A stretch of DNA of 64,000 bases from Acidobacteriota bacterium (GCA_040768985.1 JAXGLX010000002.1:4298602-4362601), one strand, 5' to 3'; numbered from the stretch's first letter, positions 7,132 to 50,769 are shown. The notes: generated by a model from the sequence alone, not told the origin. Program-made: numbers and translations.

Positions 7132-7421
7132 AAGACATCTACCAGATCCTAAAGAAGCCCCACCTGACCGAGAAATCGGTCACGCTCAAGAACGACGCCG
7201 GTTTCGTGGCCTTCCGGGTGCACCCCGACGCCAACAAGCCGGAGATCGCCGCGGCCATCGAGCGCCTGTTCAACGTGAAGGTCGATTCGATCCGGATCCT
7301 GAACATGCCCCAGAAGAAGCGCCGCATGGGCCGTTACGAGGGCCACAAGCCGGCTTACAAGAAAGCCCTGGTCAAGTTGAAGCCGGGCGAAAAGATGATT
7401 GAGTACTTTGACAATATCTAA
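7128..7421 (+). CDS. rplW: 50S ribosomal protein L23
   Basis: PHLTEKS, ANKPEI, YKKALV; operon position. Confidence 0.97.
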
Positions 7422-7444
7422 TCCCGGGAACAGGAAAGATAGCG

Positions 7445-8266
7445 ATGGGCATCAAGACGCATAAACCAGTCACCCCCAGCCGCCGGTACATGACCACGCT
7501 GGATTACGAGGAGCTGACCAGGGTCAAGCCTCTGAAGTCGCTCCTGGAGCCCCAGCAGCGGACCAACGGCCGGAACAATATCGGCCGGATCACCGTCCGC
7601 CACAAGGGCGGCGGCCACAAGCGGCGTTACCGCGTGGTGGATTTCAAGCGCACCATGGATGATATCCCGGCCAAGGTCGTCGCCATCGAGTACGACCCGA
7701 ACCGGTCGGCCAACATCGCCCGGCTGCATTACAGCAACGGCGCCAAGAGCTATATCCTGGCTCCGGACACGCTGAAGGTGGGCGACACGGTGATGAGCGG
7801 CGAGAAGGCCGACGTGCAGGTGGGGAACTGCCTGCCGCTGCGGTCCATCCCGGTGGGCACCTTCATCCACAACCTGGAAATGCGCCCCGGCAAGGGCGGC
7901 CAGCTGGTCCGCAGCGCGGGCTGCGCCGCCCAGCTCCAGGCCAAGGAAGGGAAGTACGCCGTCATCCGGCTGCCCAGCGGCGAGCTGCGCCGGATCCTCA
8001 TCGAGTGCCGGGCCACGTTGGGCCAGGTGGGCAACCCGGACCACAGCAACATCACCACCGGCAAGGCCGGCCGGACCCGCTGGCTGGGCGTTCGGCCCAC
8101 CGTCCGCGGCACGGCCATGAACCCGATCGACCATCCGCACGGCGGCGGCGAGGGCCGCACCAAGGGCGGCCGCCATCCGGTCACGCCCTGGGGCACGCCC
8201 ACCAAGGGCTACAAGACCCGCAACAGCAAGCGGACCGACAATCTGATCATCAGACGGCGGAAGTAA
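7445..8266 (+). CDS. rplB: 50S ribosomal protein L2
   Basis: [21 protein letters not shown]. Confidence 0.99.
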
Positions 8267-8283
8267 GCAGGAGGAAGTTCGCC

Positions 8284-8568
8284 ATGACCCGCTCAATCAA
8301 GAAAGGCCCGTTCGTGGATGTGCACCTGATGAAGAAGGTGGACGCCAACCGGGACGCCGACAAGAAACAGGTCATCAAGACGTGGTCCCGCCGATCCGTC
8401 GTCATCCCCGATATGGTGGGGCTGACCATCGCGGTCCACAACGGGAAGAAATTCATCCCCGTGTACGTCATGGAAAACATGGTGGGGCACAAGCTGGGCG
8501 AGTTCGCGCCGACCCGCTATTTCAAGGGCCACACCTCCAAGTCCGCCAAAAAGATGGCGGCCAAGTAG
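8284..8568 (+). CDS. rpsS: 30S ribosomal protein S19
   Basis: [28 protein letters not shown]. Confidence 0.99.
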
Positions 8569-8587
8569 AGAGCGAGAGGATGCTGCC

Positions 8588-8935
8588 ATGGAAAAACGAG
8601 CCGTAGGAAAATACGTGCGCGGTTCGGCCCAGAAGGCCCGGCTGGTCATCGACCAGATCCGCGGCTTGCCGGTGGAGGACGCCCTCAACCGGTTGCGCTT
8701 CTCCCCGAAGCGGTCGGCCAAGCACGTCGAGAAGGTGCTTAAATCGGCTATCGCCAACGTCGAGTACGCGGACGAGAGCATCAGCCTGGACGCCCTGGTG
8801 GTCTCCCAGGCATTCGTCGACATGGGCCCGACCAAGTGGCGCCGGCGGGTCCGGCCCGCCCCCATGGGCCGCGCATATCGCGAGCGCCGGCACGGCTGCC
8901 ACGTCACCATTTACGTTTCGGACAGCAGGAGGTAG
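8588..8935 (+). CDS. rplV: 50S ribosomal protein L22
   Basis: SAQKARLVIDQIRG, SAIAN; operon position. Confidence 0.97.
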   Translation: MEKRAVGKYVRGSAQKARLVIDQIRGLPVEDALNRLRFSPKRSAKHVEKVLKSAIANVEYADESISLDALVVSQAFVDMGPTKWRRRVRPAPMGRAYRERRHGCHVTIYVSDSRR

Positions 8936-8938
8936 ACC

Positions 8939-9592
8939 TTGGGCCAGAAAGTACACCCATATGGTTTCCGGCTGGGCTACAACAAGACTTGGAAGTCCCG
9001 GTGGTACGAGAAGAAGAGCTTCGGCAAGCTGCTTAACGAGGATCTCAAGATCAAGAAGGCCCTGAAGGCGAAGTTCTACCACGCCGGGATCAGCCGGATC
9101 GAGATCGAGCGCGCGGCCGACAAGCTCAACGTGTTTATCTACGCCGCCCGGCCGGGCATTCTGATCGGCAAGAAGGGCAAGGAAATCGACAAGCTGCGGT
9201 CCGAGCTCAGCAAGTCCACCGGCCATGATGTGGACATCAAGGCCGTCGAGGTGAAGAATCCCGAACTGGATTCCCAACTCGTGGCCGAGGCCATCGGACT
9301 TCAGCTCGAGAAGCGCATCGCCTTCCGCCGGGCCATGAAGCGCGCCGTCGACTCCGCCACCAAGAACGGGGCCCTGGGCGTCAAGATCCGCTGCTCCGGA
9401 CGGTTGAACGGCGTGGAAATCGCCCGCTCCGAGTGGTACCTCACCGGCCGGCTGCCGCTGCACACCCTCAAGGCGGACATCGACTACGGTTTCGCCCAGG
9501 CATTCACCACCTACGGCACCATCGGCATCAAGGTCTGGATCTACAAAGGGGAGCGGCTGAAGAAGGACCACCTCCCCGCCGTGGAGAAGTAA
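8939..9592 (+). CDS. rpsC: 30S ribosomal protein S3 (TTG start)
   Basis: [25 protein letters not shown]. Confidence 0.99.
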
Positions 9593-43690: not shown

Positions 43691-44593
43691 TCACTTGGAA
43701 ATTCGGCTGATGGCGGCATGCAGGCCGCCGAACTCGTTGACCAGGGTCACGAAGCGGTTGGGCACCGGCGCGATGAGCACCGTGCCCGAGCCGCGGAACA
43801 CGTTCACGAACCCCTCGCCGGAAGCCCAGGAGCTGAACAGCTTCTTGGTGGCCTTCTCGACGCGGAAGTCCAGATTGCCGGTGCGGGCCACGGCGAAGCT
43901 GCCGTCCACGGTCAGGACTTCGTTGTTGAGCTGCAGCGTCTCCACCGGCCCCGGGGCGTTGTACATCACCTTGCCGTGCCCGGACACGCTGGTCTGGAAG
44001 AAGCCCTCGCCGCCGAAAAGGCCGGAGATCGCCTTGTTGGTATACATGTCGACGGTGATGGAGCGGTCGCAGGCCAGGAAGGCGCCGCGGTCCAGGATCC
44101 AGGTCTCGCCCCGCAGCTCCAAAACGTTCACCTCGCCGAAGGTGGGTTCGAGGAAAATTGTGCCGGAGCCCCGGTAGATGGGCTTGACCGCCCGTTCGCC
44201 GGTGAGCTTCGACTTGATGAAGCCGCCGGCCGAGGGCGTCTGGACCTCGATCTCGATGTTGCCGATCATGTAATGGAGCGCCCCCGCCTCCAATACCACC
44301 TCGGCCTGCTGGAGGGTGATCTTGGGCATCTTGTAGTACTCGGTTTTCAGCACCTCGAATTGAGTGGCTCCCTGATAAGCAGCGGCCGGCGCGGCCGGCA
44401 CCGGCGCGGGCGCCGGCGCCGCCGGGAACAGATCCGGCAGCACCGCCCGCAGGGGCTGCCAGTTGGGCATCCCGTCGCCCCAGCATAACGTCTCGCCGTT
44501 GACCCGGCCGGCCTGGGCCATGGCCCCGACGTCCTGCGCCGACAGCGGACCCACCTGCTGATTGTTTTCCAGAATGAACAGTGTCTGGCTCAT
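43691..44593 (-). CDS. GYF_2 (DUF4339) + AIM24 family protein
   Basis: QQVGP...TLCWGDGMPNW; Ala/Pro linker; AIM24 repeats GGEGFF and SGEGFV..FRGSGTV. Confidence 0.8.
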   Translation of the reverse strand: MSQTLFILENNQQVGPLSAQDVGAMAQAGRVNGETLCWGDGMPNWQPLRAVLPDLFPAAPAPAPVPAAPAAAYQGATQFEVLKTEYYKMPKITLQQAEVVLEAGALHYMIGNIEIEVQTPSAGGFIKSKLTGERAVKPIYRGSGTIFLEPTFGEVNVLELRGETWILDRGAFLACDRSITVDMYTNKAISGLFGGEGFFQTSVSGHGKVMYNAPGPVETLQLNNEVLTVDGSFAVARTGNLDFRVEKATKKLFSSWASGEGFVNVFRGSGTVLIAPVPNRFVTLVNEFGGLHAAISRISK

Positions 44594-44614: not shown

Positions 44615-44645
44615 AAAAAAAACACCGGACGCGGAGGTCCGGTGT
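44615..44645 (-). terminator. Intrinsic terminator closing the DUF4388/Roadblock/HAMP operon
   Basis: acaccggac-ctccgc-gtccggtgt followed by a T8 tract on the minus strand. Confidence 0.8.
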
Positions 44646-44674
44646 GTGGTTGGCCGGTGTTCCGCGAACGGGGG

Positions 44675-45895
44675 TCAGCGTTTGCGCAGACGCTCGATGG
44701 CGGACTTCAAGCTGATGCGCATGCGGTCCAGCGAGTCGGCCAGGCGGCCGATCTCGTCGCCGCCGGTCTTGACCTGGATCGGAACGTCCAGGTCGCCCAG
44801 TGAAATCTTGTTGGCGGCTTCGGTGATCATCTCGATGGGCCTGGTCATGCGGGTGGCGAAAATGTACGTGAGCAGCACCGAGAACAGGATGGCCGCGCCG
44901 ATGACGATGATGATGAAGTTCCGAATGTAGTTCTGGAACTGGCGGAACCAGGTTTCGCGGACGCTCACCGAATAGATGCCGATGATCTGGTTCGAAATGT
45001 CCTTGATGGGGACGTAGGCGCTGACGTAGCTGATCTCGCCGATGGTTTCGGTCCCGATGAACTCCCGGCCCTGGTTGAGGACGTAGTTGAAGATCTCCTG
45101 CGTGATCGTCTCGCCCACCCCGCGGCCGGAGGCGCCGCTGCGCGAGGAGGCGACCGCCGTCTCGCCGAGGTACAGGGTGGCCGATCCCGCTTCGATGTTT
45201 TCCTTGTACACCATCTGCTTGAGCTGGTCGACGAGCGTGTTGTCGTTGTTCAGGACGTCGCCGGCGATCAGCGCCCCGCGGATTTCATCGCCGATGATCA
45301 GGGGCACCACGACTTCCATCCCCAGCGCGGCCTCGATCTGCTTCTTCTGGGTGCCCACCGCCAGGGCGTCTTCCATCTTCTCCTGCGACATGTAGTCGAT
45401 GGGCAGCTTGACCGAGCCGTATACCACCTTGCGGTTGCTCAGCGCCTCGCGCAGCATCGGATCCATGGCGGCCAGGTCGTCGTTGCGCTGGCCCGGATTG
45501 TTGACGCGGTACAGCACACGTCCCCGTCCGTCGGTCAGGATCAGGTAATCGATCCGGAGCTGCTGCTTGGTGAACTCCAGCACGTTGATCGCCTTCCGGC
45601 GTTCCAGGTCCGCTTGCCCGGCTGCGGCCGGAGAGGCCGGATTCTGGCTGATCGCGGCGATGAAATCGTATTGCAGCGCGTTGATGGCCAGCAGTTTGGT
45701 GTTTTCCTTGATCTCGTTCATCCGCTGCGCGTACTGGGTGGTGGCGATGTCCGAGTTGGCGCGGATCTTGGCCAGTGACTCGTCCAGCGTCTTCTGGGTG
45801 ACGATCACCACGATGACCGCGGCGGAGATGATCAGCGGGATCACGATGGCAAAGAGGGATAAACCCAGCAGTTTAGTTCGGATTGTGAGTTTCAA
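44675..45895 (-). CDS. Membrane sensor: TM - Cache-like periplasmic domain - TM - HAMP, no output domain
   Basis: YVSAYVPIKDISNQIIG (Cache-like); MTRPIEMITEAANKISLGDL...DEIGRLADSLDRM (HAMP); ends about 13 aa later. Confidence 0.82.
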   Translation of the reverse strand: MKLTIRTKLLGLSLFAIVIPLIISAAVIVVIVTQKTLDESLAKIRANSDIATTQYAQRMNEIKENTKLLAINALQYDFIAAISQNPASPAAAGQADLERRKAINVLEFTKQQLRIDYLILTDGRGRVLYRVNNPGQRNDDLAAMDPMLREALSNRKVVYGSVKLPIDYMSQEKMEDALAVGTQKKQIEAALGMEVVVPLIIGDEIRGALIAGDVLNNDNTLVDQLKQMVYKENIEAGSATLYLGETAVASSRSGASGRGVGETITQEIFNYVLNQGREFIGTETIGEISYVSAYVPIKDISNQIIGIYSVSVRETWFRQFQNYIRNFIIIVIGAAILFSVLLTYIFATRMTRPIEMITEAANKISLGDLDVPIQVKTGGDEIGRLADSLDRMRISLKSAIERLRKR

Positions 45896-45921
45896 TTTTC
45901 ACACCTCGCCTGGGGAATCGA

Positions 45922-46716
45922 TCAGACGTTCCTGATGATCTCCAGCATGTTGCGCTGGAAATCGATCATCTTTTTCGGGTCGTTGATTTCGCCGCTGAGC
46001 AGCTCGATGAGCTCGGGCAGCTTGTCTTTGGGGAAGGCTTCGCGGGATTCGCCGAGGTTGCCGATGTGGTCGTCCATCACGATGGGGGCCAGGGGGCCGA
46101 TGACCTTGGCCATCTCCCGCTCGATGAGCTGGAAGATGCCGGGATCGATCCCCACCTTGCGCTCCTCGCGGGTCACCGCCTCGCCCATCATCTCGATCAA
46201 CCCGGCGTTGAAGAGCTTGCAGAACGCCTTGCTGACGTCGAGGATGGGGAGCTCCACCTTGCCGGCGATCTCGCTCACGCTGTCAATGCCGTTAATGTGG
46301 CGAAGAATGTTCCATTCGGTGGCGTTGAGCGAGATCTCGCTGGGCGTTCCGTAGCTCATCTTGAAAACCAGGTTGGTGTTGGGGATTACCTTGCGGATAT
46401 CCTGCCAGTCGGCATCGATCTGCTCGCCGCGGCGGATGATCTCCTGGGCCCCGGTCAGAATGGTTTTGTTCTTGACGGAGATGTTGGGCAGGAAGGTGAA
46501 GATGCCGTCGGTCCACGACAGCAGCGCGTACACCGCGTTCTCGCCCAAGACCGTGTTGTATTTGGCGTGGATGACTTCGCCGGAGAGGAAATACACGTCG
46601 CCCGTATCCTCGCCGCGTTGCAGCGACAGCTTGCCGGTCCTCTGGCTGTTGCAGAGGATCTTCATGATCTCCACCAACTTCAGCTGGCTCAGGTTCCCTT
46701 TTAGGGTTTCGCTCAT
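45922..46716 (-). CDS. DUF4388 (PATAN-like) protein with wHTH-like middle and helical C-terminal domain
   Basis: LKGNLSQLKLVEIM...TGKL...GDVYFLSGEVIHA...W.DG.F; INGIDSVSEIA; VIGPLAPIV. Confidence 0.8.
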   Translation of the reverse strand: MSETLKGNLSQLKLVEIMKILCNSQRTGKLSLQRGEDTGDVYFLSGEVIHAKYNTVLGENAVYALLSWTDGIFTFLPNISVKNKTILTGAQEIIRRGEQIDADWQDIRKVIPNTNLVFKMSYGTPSEISLNATEWNILRHINGIDSVSEIAGKVELPILDVSKAFCKLFNAGLIEMMGEAVTREERKVGIDPGIFQLIEREMAKVIGPLAPIVMDDHIGNLGESREAFPKDKLPELIELLSGEINDPKKMIDFQRNMLEIIRNV

Positions 46717-46739
46717 AGTTCACAACCCTTCCGGAAGAA

Positions 46740-47234
46740 TTAACCGACGATCTGGCGGATCCTTTCCGCCTGGGCATACTCCTTCTCGCTGAGTTTTTCC
46801 CGCGAGAGCACCGTGGACTTGCGGATCCGCACCGGCGGGGCCAGTTTTTTGTAGTGCTTGTCGGAGACCACTTTCGACAGCGCGACGTTGAGGGTCATCC
46901 GCAGGTGGGCTTTGTTGAGGTTCTTGTCGCCCAGCAGAACCAGAATGGTCTCCTGCACGCCGAGCTTGGTGGGGACCAGCAGCCGCACGTTGTTGTAAAC
47001 GATCAGCTTGCCTTCGATGAAGTTCACCTCGGCTTCGACGATCTCGTCGCCGGGCAGTTCGAACGCGCCCAGGCATTGGATCAGCTCCAATGCCCCGGTG
47101 GCGGTGAGGTTGGCGCGGCCCAGCCGTTCGGTCTGGGGAAACAGGAGTTCCCCCCGGTTGTTAGCCAGGTAGGCGGAGCGGACGCCCATGACGGAGCTGA
47201 TTTCATCCACGAATTTGCCGAGTAAATCTTCCAT
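46740..47234 (-). CDS. Roadblock/LC7-like protein
   Basis: ISSVMGVRSAYLANNRGELL ... NLNKAHLRMTLNV. Confidence 0.6.
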   Translation of the reverse strand: MEDLLGKFVDEISSVMGVRSAYLANNRGELLFPQTERLGRANLTATGALELIQCLGAFELPGDEIVEAEVNFIEGKLIVYNNVRLLVPTKLGVQETILVLLGDKNLNKAHLRMTLNVALSKVVSDKHYKKLAPPVRIRKSTVLSREKLSEKEYAQAERIRQIVG

Positions 47235-47243
47235 GGCTGTCCA

Positions 47244-48251
47244 TTATTTGAGAATTTCGTAATACTTTTCCAAATCCAGGCTGGACGCGGCGTAGGCGTG
47301 ATCCGCGGCCAGCAGGGTCCGGGTCCGCTCGCGGAACGGTTCCAGGGGGAAAGCGACCCGGGCCTCGATCATTTTTTCCAGGACGCGCCGGATGAGCCGG
47401 AAGGTGGCTTCCACGATGGTTCGGGGCTTGTCCTCCGTGCGCAGTTCCAGCCGGCCGTCCCGGTAGGTGTATTCCGCGGCGAATGGGTCGAGGAAGGGGA
47501 ATTTGTCCGCCAGCTCCAGGCAGGATTCCTGGAAGAGATGGTTGAATTCGAGGCCGCGCTTGTTGTCCGCCGGGAAATCCTTTCGGAACTCGTTCAGAAG
47601 CGCTTCCATGACGGCCTGGATTTCATCCCGGGAAATCTCCACTTCCGACGGGGTGGGTTCTGCCTCCTGGGCGGTGGAGCGATAGACGTTGAATGTCGCG
47701 CCCAGGTCGCGGGATCCCTCGATGATCTCCTTGATGGCCGTCTCGCCGGCGATGAGGTCTTTCCCCAGCAGGGAAATCAGCGCGTCCACCGGCTGGCCTT
47801 CCTGAACGAACAGGAGGCCGTACCCGATGTTCTTCTGGAAAACCACTTCCACAAAGTGATCGTTGGGATCGTTCTCCAGGCGGCTCAGCAGCTTTTTGGG
47901 ATCGGTGAACTCGCTGGAGATGTTTTCATGGATCTTCTCGCTGCCCAGATAGCGGGAGATGAAAAAGACGGCTTCCGGGGGAAGCTGGTAGGTGGAAATG
48001 AGCAGGTTTTCCTTGCGGCCGATCTGGAGAATGGCGCCGAGATGCTGGCGACCCAGCAGGTTGACATCCCCGCGGATCCGGACGTTGGCCACCGCGCCGC
48101 CTTCCAGCAGGATCTCGCCCTCGTGCTTGACCCCCACCATTTCGATGAAGCCGGAGAAGGAGTTGCCCTTGAGTTCCTCGAGCAGCTTGCCCAAGTCCAC
48201 GAAATAGGAGCTGAGTTCCTTGTGAACCGGCTTCCCCTTCGGAATGATCAT
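47244..48251 (-). CDS. Protein with an internally duplicated DUF4388/DUF2226-like domain
   Basis: Repeats VHKELSSYFVDLGKLLEEL...GEILLEGG and IHENISSEFTDPKKLLSRL...GLLFVQEG; TAATG coupling to the upstream gene. Confidence 0.65.
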   Translation of the reverse strand: MIIPKGKPVHKELSSYFVDLGKLLEELKGNSFSGFIEMVGVKHEGEILLEGGAVANVRIRGDVNLLGRQHLGAILQIGRKENLLISTYQLPPEAVFFISRYLGSEKIHENISSEFTDPKKLLSRLENDPNDHFVEVVFQKNIGYGLLFVQEGQPVDALISLLGKDLIAGETAIKEIIEGSRDLGATFNVYRSTAQEAEPTPSEVEISRDEIQAVMEALLNEFRKDFPADNKRGLEFNHLFQESCLELADKFPFLDPFAAEYTYRDGRLELRTEDKPRTIVEATFRLIRRVLEKMIEARVAFPLEPFRERTRTLLAADHAYAASSLDLEKYYEILK

Positions 48252-48916
48252 TATTGCCGCTCGTTGATATAGGTTTGGAGTTCCTTCATCACCTGGGGCT
48301 CGGCAAGTTTCAGGTTGGCTTGCGGGTTGAAGAAAATCCCGATGAGGTGGGGATCGCGGTCCACGATCATCAGGGTCTTGTCGCTGAAGTTGACCGTGAT
48401 GCTGTCGAAGTAGCTGATACCGGAACTCTTGCCGATGCTCTGCAGCTTGGCGGCGCAAAAAGACAGGATCTGGGCGTAAAGCTCCACTTCCTCGAAGCTG
48501 CTGTTGGACAGAGGGGTTCCATCCTTGAGCAGGGTGATCGCGGCGAGGACCCCGTCGACCTGCATCAGGTTTTTGATGAGCTTGATGTGCACCTGGTCCT
48601 GGCCGGCCTGGCTCTCGTCGAAGATCCGCATGCCCTCGAGAATCAGCTCGGACCACTTGATCTCGTTGGTCTTGATGTTTGTGCGGATGCCGTCCTCGAT
48701 CTTGAACTCGCCTTCCGTGAGGTGGATCGCCTTGTACACGGCGTCAGGGCCCACCAGATTGTCGAACTGGGCGTGGGGGATGTCACCGTTTTCGAAATAG
48801 ATCACGCCGATCTTCCCCCGGTAGTTGAAGGTCAACTTGGCGGTTTTCTTCTCCAGGCAGTTCAACTGAATCAGGTTGACCAGATTGACTTCCTTGAGAT
48901 TACCAATCAGTGCCAT
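48251..48916 (-). CDS. DUF4388 + Roadblock/LC7 fusion protein
   Basis: MALIGNLKEVNLVNLIQ...GVIYFENGDIPHA...EGEF...LILEGMRIFDE, then LMQVDGVLAAITLLKDG. Confidence 0.8.
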   Translation of the reverse strand: MALIGNLKEVNLVNLIQLNCLEKKTAKLTFNYRGKIGVIYFENGDIPHAQFDNLVGPDAVYKAIHLTEGEFKIEDGIRTNIKTNEIKWSELILEGMRIFDESQAGQDQVHIKLIKNLMQVDGVLAAITLLKDGTPLSNSSFEEVELYAQILSFCAAKLQSIGKSSGISYFDSITVNFSDKTLMIVDRDPHLIGIFFNPQANLKLAEPQVMKELQTYINERQ

Positions 48917-48970
48917 TTGGTTTTTCCAGTTTTTAGAATAAGTTGCCCGGCCGATGACGGCATAAGTAAA

Positions 48971-48998
48971 AGTATCACGGCCCGACAATTCATGTCAA
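48971..48998 (-). promoter_or_regulatory. Putative sigma70 promoter of the five-gene operon
   Basis: TTGACA-16 bp-GATACT on the minus strand. Confidence 0.55.
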
Positions 48999-49036: not shown

Positions 49037-49819
49037 TCAGCGGTTTTTCCATGTCGGCGGCCGCCGGTCCACCCAGGCGGCGATGCCTTCGGTGAAGTCC
49101 TCCAAATCGGTCAGGATATTCAGGTAGTCGGTGAAGGACTCGTCGATGAATCGCTGGAAAACCTCATGCTTGGCCCGGCGCAGGTTGCGCAGCATCAGCC
49201 CGATCACCGGCGTGCTGAGCGTGGACAGGTGCGCCAGGGTTTTCTTAAGCTCGGCCACGAGCTCTTCGCGCGGATGCACCCGGGACACCAGCCCCAGCTC
49301 GAGGGCCTGGGCGGCCGTCATTTCGCGACCGGTCAGGAAGGTCTGGAGCGACGCGGTGAACCCGGCCTGGTGCCCCAGCATGATGGTGCCCACCGCCGGA
49401 AAAGTGCCGATGGCCAGGTGGTCGTACTGGAAGGTGGCCGCGGAGCTGGCCAGCACAAGGTCGAAGAAGGGGAGCAGGTCGCAGCCCCAGTTGCGGACCT
49501 TGCCGTCCACCAGGGCAACGGTGAGGTAATCCACGCTGAGCAGGAACTCGCAGATGTTGCGGAAGCGCTCCAGGGCGGAGAACACCATCTCGCGGGTGTG
49601 TTCCGAGTAGTCCAGGCCGCCGATGAAACTGGGGCCGGAGGCGGACACGAGCAGAGCGGCCGTATCGGTCTGGCCGACGGCTGACTCCATCAGCTCGCTC
49701 CACTCGCCCAGCAGTTGCAGTGACAGGAGATTGTCCGGCGGATTGTTCAGGGTGACGTGGGCCAGGCGGCCTTTGAGCTCGAAACGGATCTTCTCGAACT
49801 GGGCCGAATCGTCTTGCAT
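49037..49819 (-). CDS. Enoyl-CoA hydratase/isomerase (crotonase) family protein
   Basis: VTLNNPP.N, LTGREMTAAQALELGLV, EDFTEGIAAW..RRPP. Confidence 0.85.
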   Translation of the reverse strand: MQDDSAQFEKIRFELKGRLAHVTLNNPPDNLLSLQLLGEWSELMESAVGQTDTAALLVSASGPSFIGGLDYSEHTREMVFSALERFRNICEFLLSVDYLTVALVDGKVRNWGCDLLPFFDLVLASSAATFQYDHLAIGTFPAVGTIMLGHQAGFTASLQTFLTGREMTAAQALELGLVSRVHPREELVAELKKTLAHLSTLSTPVIGLMLRNLRRAKHEVFQRFIDESFTDYLNILTDLEDFTEGIAAWVDRRPPTWKNR

Positions 49820-49920: not shown

Positions 49921-50769
49921 ATGGGGCGAATGCAAGAATCCACAACGGCCCGCACCCTGAACGTCCGGGTCACCCGGTGCGAGATGCTCGCCGGCGGCTA
50001 TTTTCTGCTCGGCGTCGCTGCGCCGGAGGTTGCCGCCGCGGCGGAGCCGGGGCAGTTTTTCATGCTCGGGCTGCCCCAACACGCCCTGTCCGCCGATCCG
50101 TTGCTGAACCGGCCCCTCAGCGTGCTCGACGCGCCCCACGCCGGCGCGGCCGGGGAAATCCTTTTTCTGATCAAGCAGGTGGGACGGGGCACCCGCCTGC
50201 TCGCCGGGCTGCGGCCGGGCGACGCGCTGTTCGCCCACGGACCGCTGGGCGGAACATTCCCGACGCCGCCGGCCGGCGGGACCCTGGTCCTGGTGGGTGG
50301 CGGCGTGGGCATCGCGCCGCTCTATTTCTACCTGCGCCGCTTTCAGGGGAAGGCCCGGCTGGTGCTGTTCTACGGCGGGCGCACCGCCGCCGAGCTGCCG
50401 TTGCGCGATCGCTTGGCGTCCGCGGAGGGCACGGACGTCCGCTTGGTGACCGAGGATGGCAGCCACGGGGAGCGGGGCCTGGTGACGGAGCCGCTTGAAC
50501 GCTACCTGAAACAGAATGCCGTCGACCGCATCTATTGCTGCGGACCCAACGCGATGATGGCCGCCGTTTACCGGATCGGCGCCGCAGGCGGTCGGCCGGT
50601 GTGGGTATCCATGGAGAACCGGATGGGGTGCGGCATGGGCGTGTGCCTGGGTTGCACGATGCCGGTGCGAGACGACCGCGGCATCGCCATGCGGCGGGTG
50701 TGCGCCGACGGTCCCGTATTTGAAGCCGACCGGGTCGATTGGGACACGATCGGCCGGTCCCCAATCTAG
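49921..50769 (+). CDS. pyrK: Dihydroorotate dehydrogenase electron transfer subunit (PyrK-like)
   Basis: PGQF, RPLS, GPLG, GGGVGIAP, CGP, MGCGMGVCLGC...VCADGPVF. Confidence 0.85.
   Translation: MGRMQESTTARTLNVRVTRCEMLAGGYFLLGVAAPEVAAAAEPGQFFMLGLPQHALSADPLLNRPLSVLDAPHAGAAGEILFLIKQVGRGTRLLAGLRPGDALFAHGPLGGTFPTPPAGGTLVLVGGGVGIAPLYFYLRRFQGKARLVLFYGGRTAAELPLRDRLASAEGTDVRLVTEDGSHGERGLVTEPLERYLKQNAVDRIYCCGPNAMMAAVYRIGAAGGRPVWVSMENRMGCGMGVCLGCTMPVRDDRGIAMRRVCADGPVFEADRVDWDTIGRSPI

Follow-up and report, generated by a model that had tools for sequence, protein, structure and literature searches.

Few signal converters have been studied as closely as HAMP domains, and receptors of the Af1503 type have provided a structural model of HAMP signalling with, to our knowledge, no known partner. 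In Myxococcus xanthus and Thermus thermophilus, the MglA/MglB polarity module also includes the Roadblock paralogue MglC and the proteins RomR and RomX. The CASP11 target paper describes Af1502, a bundle of four helices with an LGPx(x)A motif between helices 1 and 2, as the founding member of the STAC proteins, whose genes are coupled in genomes to those of Af1503-like receptors in which the HAMP domain is the sole cytosolic part (PMC4834066). Genes encoding PATAN domains (DUF4388) are known neighbours of mglA and mglB, according to the survey by Wuichet and Sogaard-Andersen (2014), and a preprint on Synechocystis reports that PATAN domains bind the pilus motor ATPase PilB1. For the actinobacterial conservons, the literature describes the Roadblock protein as a GTPase-activating protein and the CvnC homologue as a likely guanine nucleotide exchange factor. 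Here we describe a five-gene operon (genes A to E, minus strand, positions 44,615 to 48,998) in a 64,000-nucleotide window of the Acidobacteriota bacterium genome GCA_040768985.1 (JAXGLX010000002.1:4298602-4362601), which brings together a HAMP-terminated receptor, a STAC-like domain, PATAN domains and Roadblock-like domains. The PATAN-MglA/MglB neighbourhood and Af1503-STAC coupling are known as separate observations; their combination in one cassette was not found described in the literature searched, a search that reached neither supplementary tables nor the original STAC paper. The preliminary description of the locus had assigned DUF4388, Roadblock and Cache-HAMP domains to the five proteins, assignments that profile and structure evidence supports throughout, and had noted an absence of catalytic output; in line with this, searches of Pfam and NCBIfam identified no kinase, cyclase, receiver or P-loop domain in A to E.

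The link to Af1502 lies in protein D. Gene D (45922..46716, minus strand) is located 26 nt upstream of E and encodes 264 amino acids comprising a PATAN domain (residues ~5-108; PF14332, E 1.3e-18, 67.6 bits vs a cut-off of 25), a winged helix (~110-180) and a STAC-like four-helix domain (~191-263). An AlphaFold2 (AF2) model of D, with a predicted local distance difference test score (pLDDT) of 87.8, places the C-terminal helices at residues 192-206, 210-220, 230-241 and 247-263. Af1502 is the best PDB match of this C-terminal domain by structure and by profile. Structural alignment with VIA-align superposes the domain on chain 5a1q_B with a Z score of 7.5 and a root-mean-square deviation of 3.0 over 68 aligned residues, and a profile of 18 sequences searched against 177,635 PDB sequences retrieves 5a1q_A (E 0.0017 over 30 residues), the next match having an E-value of 0.54. 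The profile alignment extends from helix 1 through the IGPIA turn into helix 2. Residues G207, P208 and A210 (G-P-x-A), which do not vary among 23 D-family sequences or across the 18-row alignment, align to the IGPIA of Af1502. No Pfam family was matched at E<=10 by the C-terminal domain alone. Protein D thus has a bundle of four helices in the STAC size range (about 60-90 residues), carries the LGPx(x)A motif and is genomically coupled to a HAMP-only receptor, and on profile and model evidence its helical domain looks like an Af1502-type STAC domain; if it is STAC-like, the E-D pair resembles Af1503-Af1502. This assignment adds to the preliminary description, as do a third, C-terminal domain in protein B and a second MglA-like protein in the genome.

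Gene E (44675..45895, minus strand, TTG start) encodes a 406-amino-acid receptor with a first transmembrane segment, a periplasmic Cache-type sensor (sCache_3_3, E 1e-17; dCache_3, E 5.6e-8), a second transmembrane segment and a HAMP domain (E 1.6e-14, residues 346-397). The protein terminates 9 residues beyond the HAMP match, and all 19 aligned relatives likewise stop 2-7 residues past a common (E/D)RLR motif. Neither HATPase_c nor HisKA was matched by E, and NCBIfam returned only partial matches of the HAMP region to kinases, far under the cut-offs. With a terminal HAMP and no effector module, E has the make-up of an output-less HAMP receptor. Its HAMP domain and tail are 50% identical (range 40-71%) to those of 11 distant relatives vs 14% for the sensor, and the sensor type of the family varies across phyla between Cache, dCache, four-helix bundle (4HB) and zinc ribbon. 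Because the terminal HAMP is so strongly constrained across phyla, it looks like an interaction surface. Complex modelling of the HAMP tail, which the preliminary description had proposed for each DUF4388 and Roadblock protein, was carried out with D: a model of D residues 108-264 bound to the dimeric HAMP of E scored 0.40 (runs 0.33, 0.41 and 0.40) vs 0.00 for the best control, the runs sharing at least 93% of contacts with a partner pLDDT of at least 67. The predicted contact is classed as weak support by a calibration in which 58 of 80 solved complexes attained the mark, as did two of 110 mismatched pairs, and in which scores of 0.60 or less comprised only seven of the 80 solved complexes plus both of the mismatched pairs that passed.

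Roadblock-like domains are predicted in two of the remaining proteins. Gene A (48251..48916, minus strand; 221 amino acids) combines a PATAN/DUF4388 domain (PF14332, E 1.1e-16, 61.4 bits vs a gathering cut-off of 25) with a C-terminal half whose profile (positions 106-215) matches the Roadblock/LC7 structures 7f8f_A (E 2.4e-6) and 7yh1_D (E 9.1e-6) in the PDB. Gene C (46740..47234, minus strand; 164 amino acids) encodes a Roadblock/LC7-like domain (residues ~1-125) followed by a basic C-terminal tail. The two are related by profile comparison (hhalign, 95.5%, E 1.5e-8); the C family also aligns with MglB (93.1%, E 3.1e-7), the alignment of A with MglB being weak (32.9%). PDB matches of the C profile belong almost exclusively to the Roadblock superfamily, including 7yh1_D (E 0.0019), LAMTOR2 (E 0.0092) and MglB (E 0.054). 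Pfam Robl_LC7 is matched by three of 20 C-family members; the window's own protein C matches no Pfam family above cut-off. Profile similarity therefore assigns a putative MglB-type Roadblock/LC7 fold to C and to the C-terminal half of A, as distant paralogues of MglB with no adjacent mglA rather than as orthologues. The archaeal families DUF2226 and DUF2173, weakly matched by B relatives and A, had no match in this genome.

Protein B (gene at 47244..48251, minus strand; 335 amino acids) consists of two PATAN-like repeats and a C-terminal alpha/beta domain. The AF2 model (pLDDT 87.3) shows tandem beta-alpha-beta-beta-beta-alpha-beta repeats at residues 7-102 and 105-191, with the alpha/beta domain at 208-334. 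The window protein itself scores 16.3 bits against DUF4388, below the cut-off of 25, and the family was matched by 16 of 23 B-family members (best E 3.1e-12); a PATAN profile matches both repeats of a B relative. The DUF4388 and Roadblock folds claimed in the preliminary description are therefore both upheld by profile evidence, with A and D above the Pfam cut-off for the former. The C-terminal domain of B (~208-334) carries an invariant FLDPFAAE motif, and searched alone against Pfam it gave nothing at E<=10. Foldseek against the PDB with the whole protein gave no fold match at E<=0.001, and VIA-align of the whole protein against 48,161 chains reached no Z above 5.9, a background-level value; these negatives do not demonstrate a new fold. 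The family is large: of 1.84 billion cluster representatives, 1178 match at E<=0.001, 784 still do so at E<=1e-10 and 347 at E<=1e-30. No NCBIfam family was matched by A, B, C or D.

The five genes are conserved together. In a sample of 41 genomes of the phylum, including the window's own and one flagged as unpublished, B as query matched 10: the window's own genome, all seven others of its family and both genomes of the second family of the order, with no match in the 31 sample genomes of other families. All nine related genomes of the order preserve the colinear order A-B-C-D-E, with identity of B falling to 37%. A cross-phylum scan using one genome per species recovered 216 loci encoding a B relative, of which the best 80 were analysed. 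Profiles built from 10 orthologues detected E in 73 of these 80 loci, D in 68 and D and E together in 64, and broader profiles detected A in 69, C in 68, D in 68, E in 73 and all five families in 55. Of the 54 loci from which no sequence had entered the profiles, 34 contained all five families, and many of the loci missing a family abut contig ends. The cassette is thereby present in Acidobacteriota, Thermodesulfobacteriota, Chloroflexota, NC10 and KSB1. Loss of co-conservation and lack of support for the folds had been named as the outcomes that would count against the operon as a unit, and neither occurred.

Gene order varies between lineages around this common content. Loci were grouped by us from their taxon labels, with those labelled "uncultured bacterium", "Pseudomonadota" or "Deltaproteobacteria" placed in a delta-type set, one "bacterium" locus placed with Chloroflexota and two "Clostridia" loci placed with a closely similar Blastocatellia locus; Pfam annotation of clusters from other phyla covered 68 proteins in eight loci. 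The order is A-B-C-D-E in Acidobacteriota and NC10, A-B-C-D-E-mglB-mglA in some Anaerolineae-type Chloroflexota, and E, a short Roadblock-only A and then B-C-D in other Chloroflexota. Syntrophobacterales-type loci have the order C-D-E-A-B-mglB-mglA and Desulfobacterales-type loci mglB-mglA-x-D-E-B-x-A-C. In delta-type loci A has an N-terminal receiver domain, and D is often without PATAN while retaining the winged helix and STAC-like domain.

Genes for the MglA/MglB switch are recurrent companions of the cassette. One or both of mglB and mglA occur within the locus in 40 of the 80 loci, always on the strand of B and at most 4.6 kb from it, with a strong lineage dependence: 35 of 41 Thermodesulfobacteriota-type loci, 4 of 26 Chloroflexota loci and the single KSB1 locus, vs none of eight Acidobacteriota-type and none of four NC10 loci. 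Pfam matches to Robl_LC7 and to Ras/Arf-type families confirm the linked mglB-mglA pair in the annotated loci. Pilus genes flank two of the eight annotated clusters, a PilB (T2SSE + MshEN) gene standing at the cluster end in locus L080 and a PilM gene following the cluster in L024. The genome search suggested in the preliminary description located a canonical mglB-mglA pair elsewhere in the present genome (contig C2, C2:371745-372860; MglB-type gene, C2:371745-372245), its MglA having the usual P-loop, DRT and PGQ motifs, together with PilM and several PilB/PilT-type ATPases. Among cluster-bearing genomes without linked mglBA, an MglA profile at E<=1e-6 found MglA in six of six Acidobacteriota-type and four of four NC10 genomes.

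No MglA was found with the same profile and threshold in any of 22 cluster-bearing Chloroflexota genomes, among them the complete isolate genome of Tepidiforma flava, which gave no match with a single protein as query either. Incompleteness of metagenome-assembled genomes (MAGs) cannot account for these 22 misses, and they indicate that the core can work without MglA. Since MglA is missing from many cluster-bearing genomes, the five-gene core is the part that stays constant, and the GTPase pair often accompanies it but can be dispensed with. The two options raised in the preliminary description both occur in nature: signalling in trans to an MglA encoded elsewhere, in view of the mglB-mglA pair within half of the analysed loci and the unlinked mglBA of this genome, and a GTPase-free system, in view of the Chloroflexota genomes. 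In a 2.1-Mb Syntrophobacterales MAG the cluster ends with mglB and then a 105-amino-acid open reading frame (ORF) in the place of mglA (L027:11035-11806, plus strand), and no MglA was found in that MAG at E<=1e-8. An Anaerolineae locus (L051) has genes for a receiver-Ras-family GTPase fusion (8169-9194, plus strand) and an OmpR-type response regulator (7323-8132, plus strand) directly upstream of A-B-C-D-E-mglB-mglA.

From these data we infer a kinase-free relay from HAMP to the STAC-like domain to a PATAN/Roadblock scaffold, with MglA/MglB as its target in this genome, and consider its chances about even. In this scheme the Cache domain of E would sense a periplasmic ligand, and the terminal HAMP domain, as the sole cytoplasmic part of the receptor, would act as the output surface by docking the STAC-like domain of D, as proposed for archaeal Af1503/Af1502. 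Proteins A, B, C and D would assemble into a non-enzymatic adaptor complex in which the Roadblock domains of A and C probably pair with each other, and the state of this complex would be relayed to the polarity and motility machinery. The most likely target here would be the unlinked MglA/MglB switch and, via MglA/MglB or through direct contact of PATAN, the type IV pilus motor. More tentatively, and with a probability that we place short of even, the cassette may represent a widespread and ancient kinase-free pathway in which a bare HAMP effector docks STAC and a PATAN/Roadblock scaffold sets the state of the Ras-like GTPase MglA or, in the absence of MglA, acts directly on the pilus motor.

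Several observations weigh against the relay to MglA/MglB. No GTPase is encoded in or near the operon, and mglBA lies ~3.97 Mb away on the contig. The Chloroflexota genomes bearing the cluster have no match to MglA. The one complete delta-type genome checked encodes another MglA in addition to the cluster-linked copy, and the single-copy MglA of the present genome may not be the equivalent partner. The likeness to Af1502 is modest, as the sequence match spans 30 residues and a Z of 7.5 is in a range common for helical bundles and short of the level regarded as safe for them; the E-D complex score is a weak pass, and the C-terminal domain of B is without a fold match by Foldseek or VIA-align.

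The missing MglA in Chloroflexota is also an argument for a form of the same relay that is independent of a GTPase, in which the core would exert its effect directly on a polar machine, for example the pilus motor PilB/PilC, linkage to mglBA being lineage-specific and MglA not being the target in this genome. Such a direct action would agree with the lack of mglA/mglB linkage in the Acidobacteriota-type and NC10 loci, with PilB at the cluster end in L080 and with the binding of PATAN to PilB1 in Synechocystis. However, the tight same-strand linkage of mglB-mglA in half of the analysed loci weighs against it, as do the presence of MglA elsewhere in every Acidobacteriota-type and NC10 genome checked and the two extra Roadblock domains, whose fold is of the class found in GTPase regulators. 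On balance we regard a GTPase-independent relay as rather unlikely for this genome, though deserving of consideration.

The winged helix of D bears on a further alternative, membrane-tethered control of transcription, whereby the winged helix would bind DNA, E would hold or release D via the STAC-like domain, and the output would be gene expression. The fold itself is compatible with this: a sequence profile of the domain matches MarR-type regulators (7kua_A, E 1.6e-4), and many transcription-factor winged helices match D at a Z of about 6. By structure, however, the domain is closest to winged helices that bind proteins, those of Nprl2/Npr2 in GATOR1/SEA (VIA-align, 8fw5_B, Z 8.5; 8adl_S, Z 8.2), and Foldseek gave only weak rows, with SEA/GATOR1 chains at E 2.8e-3 to 4.7e-2. 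The GATOR1/SEA complexes containing Nprl2/Npr2 are eukaryotic and act on Rag GTPases together with Roadblock proteins. The resemblance could be due to chance or to distant kinship among GTPase-regulator scaffolds. Pfam NPR2 is weakly matched by four of the 23 D-family members. Furthermore, the winged helix has a net charge of -6 to +1 and is acidic or neutral in 21 of the 23 members, the recurrent neighbours of the cassette are MglA/MglB, receiver-PATAN and pilus genes rather than regulated target operons, and the Synechocystis paper argues that PatA-type PATAN proteins are not DNA-binding. We consider transcriptional control improbable. Regulation of solute transport, the role first proposed for STAC domains, in which the module would tune a transporter rather than polarity, is highly improbable: the STAC name derives from a link to SLC5 transporters and Af1503-type receptors are often near transport genes (PMC4834066), but transporter genes are not a recurrent feature of the eight annotated clusters, conservation of the ABC-transporter genes close to the operon does not extend beyond the genus, and the recurrent partners are PATAN, Roadblock and MglA/MglB.

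Among described systems, the operon shares with Af1503/Af1502 a transmembrane receptor with HAMP as the only cytoplasmic part, E being likened to Af1503 by architecture and not by sequence, and an adjacent gene encoding a four-helix domain with an (L/I/V)GPxA motif. It differs in being bacterial with a Cache sensor, in the fusion of the STAC-like domain to PATAN and a winged helix, in the addition of two Roadblock domains and a tandem-PATAN protein, and in having relatives whose neighbours are mglBA and pilus genes rather than transporters. With the MglA/MglB module it has in common Roadblock-fold proteins, PATAN neighbours, a type IV pilus link and, in 40 of the 80 related loci, physical linkage to mglB-mglA itself. 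Unlike that module, the operon contains no GTPase and no RomR/RomX-type proteins, A and C are not MglB orthologues, and the input is a HAMP-only receptor instead of a Frz-type chemosensory kinase pathway.

The conservons (AGPS; CvnA-D) offer a parallel set of parts: alongside a HAMP-containing membrane sensor they have a Roadblock protein, a small protein of winged-helix type and a small GTPase. However, E lacks the histidine-kinase ATPase module of CvnA, the operon encodes no small GTPase of the CvnD type, the phyla differ, and the conservon literature consulted does not list PATAN or STAC as core components. The match of D to DUF742 (CvnC-type) falls below the cut-off (E 0.091, 13.1 bits vs a cut-off of 27; three of 23 family members at E<=0.1, best 0.0092), and no DUF742 was found in this genome at E<=0.1. 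Given the absence of a kinase module in E, the sub-threshold DUF742 match and the lack of a GTPase in the operon, the conservon parallel is one of design and not of membership. PatA-type PATAN-receiver (REC) regulators, PixG and PixE among others, share the PATAN domain and the pilus motor as proposed target. Their input is a CheA-type kinase rather than a HAMP-only receptor, and A, B and D are without a receiver domain; Desulfobacterota relatives of A are REC-PATAN, the opposite order.

The cassette bears on the question of the output partner of HAMP-terminated receptors, for which it supplies a candidate in a conserved neighbour whose Af1502-like putative docking domain is fused to cell-polarity adaptors, turning HAMP output into a testable pathway. 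It also suggests a route by which outside cues may reach MglA/MglB and type IV pili in phyla without a Frz-type pathway (Acidobacteriota, Desulfobacterota, Chloroflexota and NC10). If the kinase-free pathway is true, it would constitute a receptor-to-G-protein route without phosphorylation and the first concrete output for Af1503-type receptors. Two sizeable unannotated families would gain names and context, that of B alone having 784 representatives at the E<=1e-10 level.

The five genes are co-directional ORFs separated by intergenic gaps of -1, 9, 23 and 26 nt, in agreement with the tight packing reported in the preliminary description, and the A stop and B start overlap in the sequence TAATG with one base common to TAA and ATG. 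An ORF listing places the start of A at a TTG at 48988; an alignment of 15 relatives places it at the ATG at 48916, and we adopted the latter since 15 of 15 aligned relatives start at the MALIGN/MPLTG position. The TTGACA promoter and strong terminator named as bounds were both located as sequence features. A promoter-like TTGACA-16 nt-GATACT upstream of A (48971..48998, minus strand) has 10 of 12 consensus matches, promoter-like sites in the scanned 6.7 kb numbering 4 vs 1.4 +/- 1.1 in shuffles. After E, an intrinsic-terminator-like hairpin and T run (44615..44645, minus strand) comprises a stem at 44645-44622 of 9 pairs (6 G-C) with a 6-nt loop, followed by TTTTTTT; this hairpin is the strongest of the scan, in which terminator-like sites overall showed no enrichment (7 seen vs 6.2 +/- 2.6 expected).

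The five-gene operon is real and expressed. In four metatranscriptome runs of one anaerobic digester study, 63-81% of sampled words of the 4.4-kb stretch were present, and RNA-library contigs span all four junctions, with zero base substitutions in the listed pieces (E/D, run X4 record 28; D/C and C/B, X1 record 5 and X3 record 21; B/A, X2 record 14 and X1 record 7). Contigs extend up to 48932-48935, with little cover above ~48935, and the lower contig ends at 44651-44653 in all four runs; because all contigs come from a single study, these ends are no evidence for transcript ends. The sequences of A to E are thus present in RNA libraries, which do not in themselves prove a single transcript, and DNA carry-over is possible.

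The host genome is 5.0 Mb in two contigs and has an estimated completeness of 100%. The G+C content at third codon positions (GC3) of A to E is 0.80-0.89, similar to neighbouring genes, and the lower total G+C of the operon region arises at codon positions 1 and 2, reflecting amino-acid composition. Horizontal transfer as the source of the lower G+C was rejected, because the GC3 of the five genes matches that of their neighbours. A defence-system reading was likewise dropped, as PADLOC gave one stray match at E 0.0071. No P-loop protein is encoded among A to E or their immediate neighbour genes.

Other PATAN and MglA-like genes lie elsewhere on contig C2. The second MglA-like protein of the genome (C2:2882502-2885240, minus strand) has an MglA-like domain, 46% identical to the genome's MglA, fused to a GAF domain and a histidine-kinase ATPase, and its gene is directly upstream of a TPR-PATAN gene (C2:2880952-2882505, minus strand). 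MglA-like matches inside open frames of ~750-930 amino acids were found in all nine related genomes. Nearby, the product of a gene at C2:2874574-2875566 (plus strand) joins PATAN/DUF4388 to a cyclic-nucleotide-binding domain; the genome has eight DUF4388 matches in all, this one included.

Upstream of A, an enoyl-CoA hydratase-family gene (49037-49819, minus strand) and a divergent gene (49921-50769, plus strand) adjoin the operon in nine of nine genomes of the order, with identity dropping to 30-36%. The enoyl-CoA hydratase gene was considered as a member of the system and rejected: it represents synteny, since the promoter-like site intervenes before A and the gene is not a recurrent neighbour in the eight annotated loci from other phyla. 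On the 3' side of the terminator, a gene at 43691-44593 (minus strand) encodes a protein with GYF_2 (E 9e-15) and AIM24 (E 3.2e-46) domains and adjoins the operon only within the genus.

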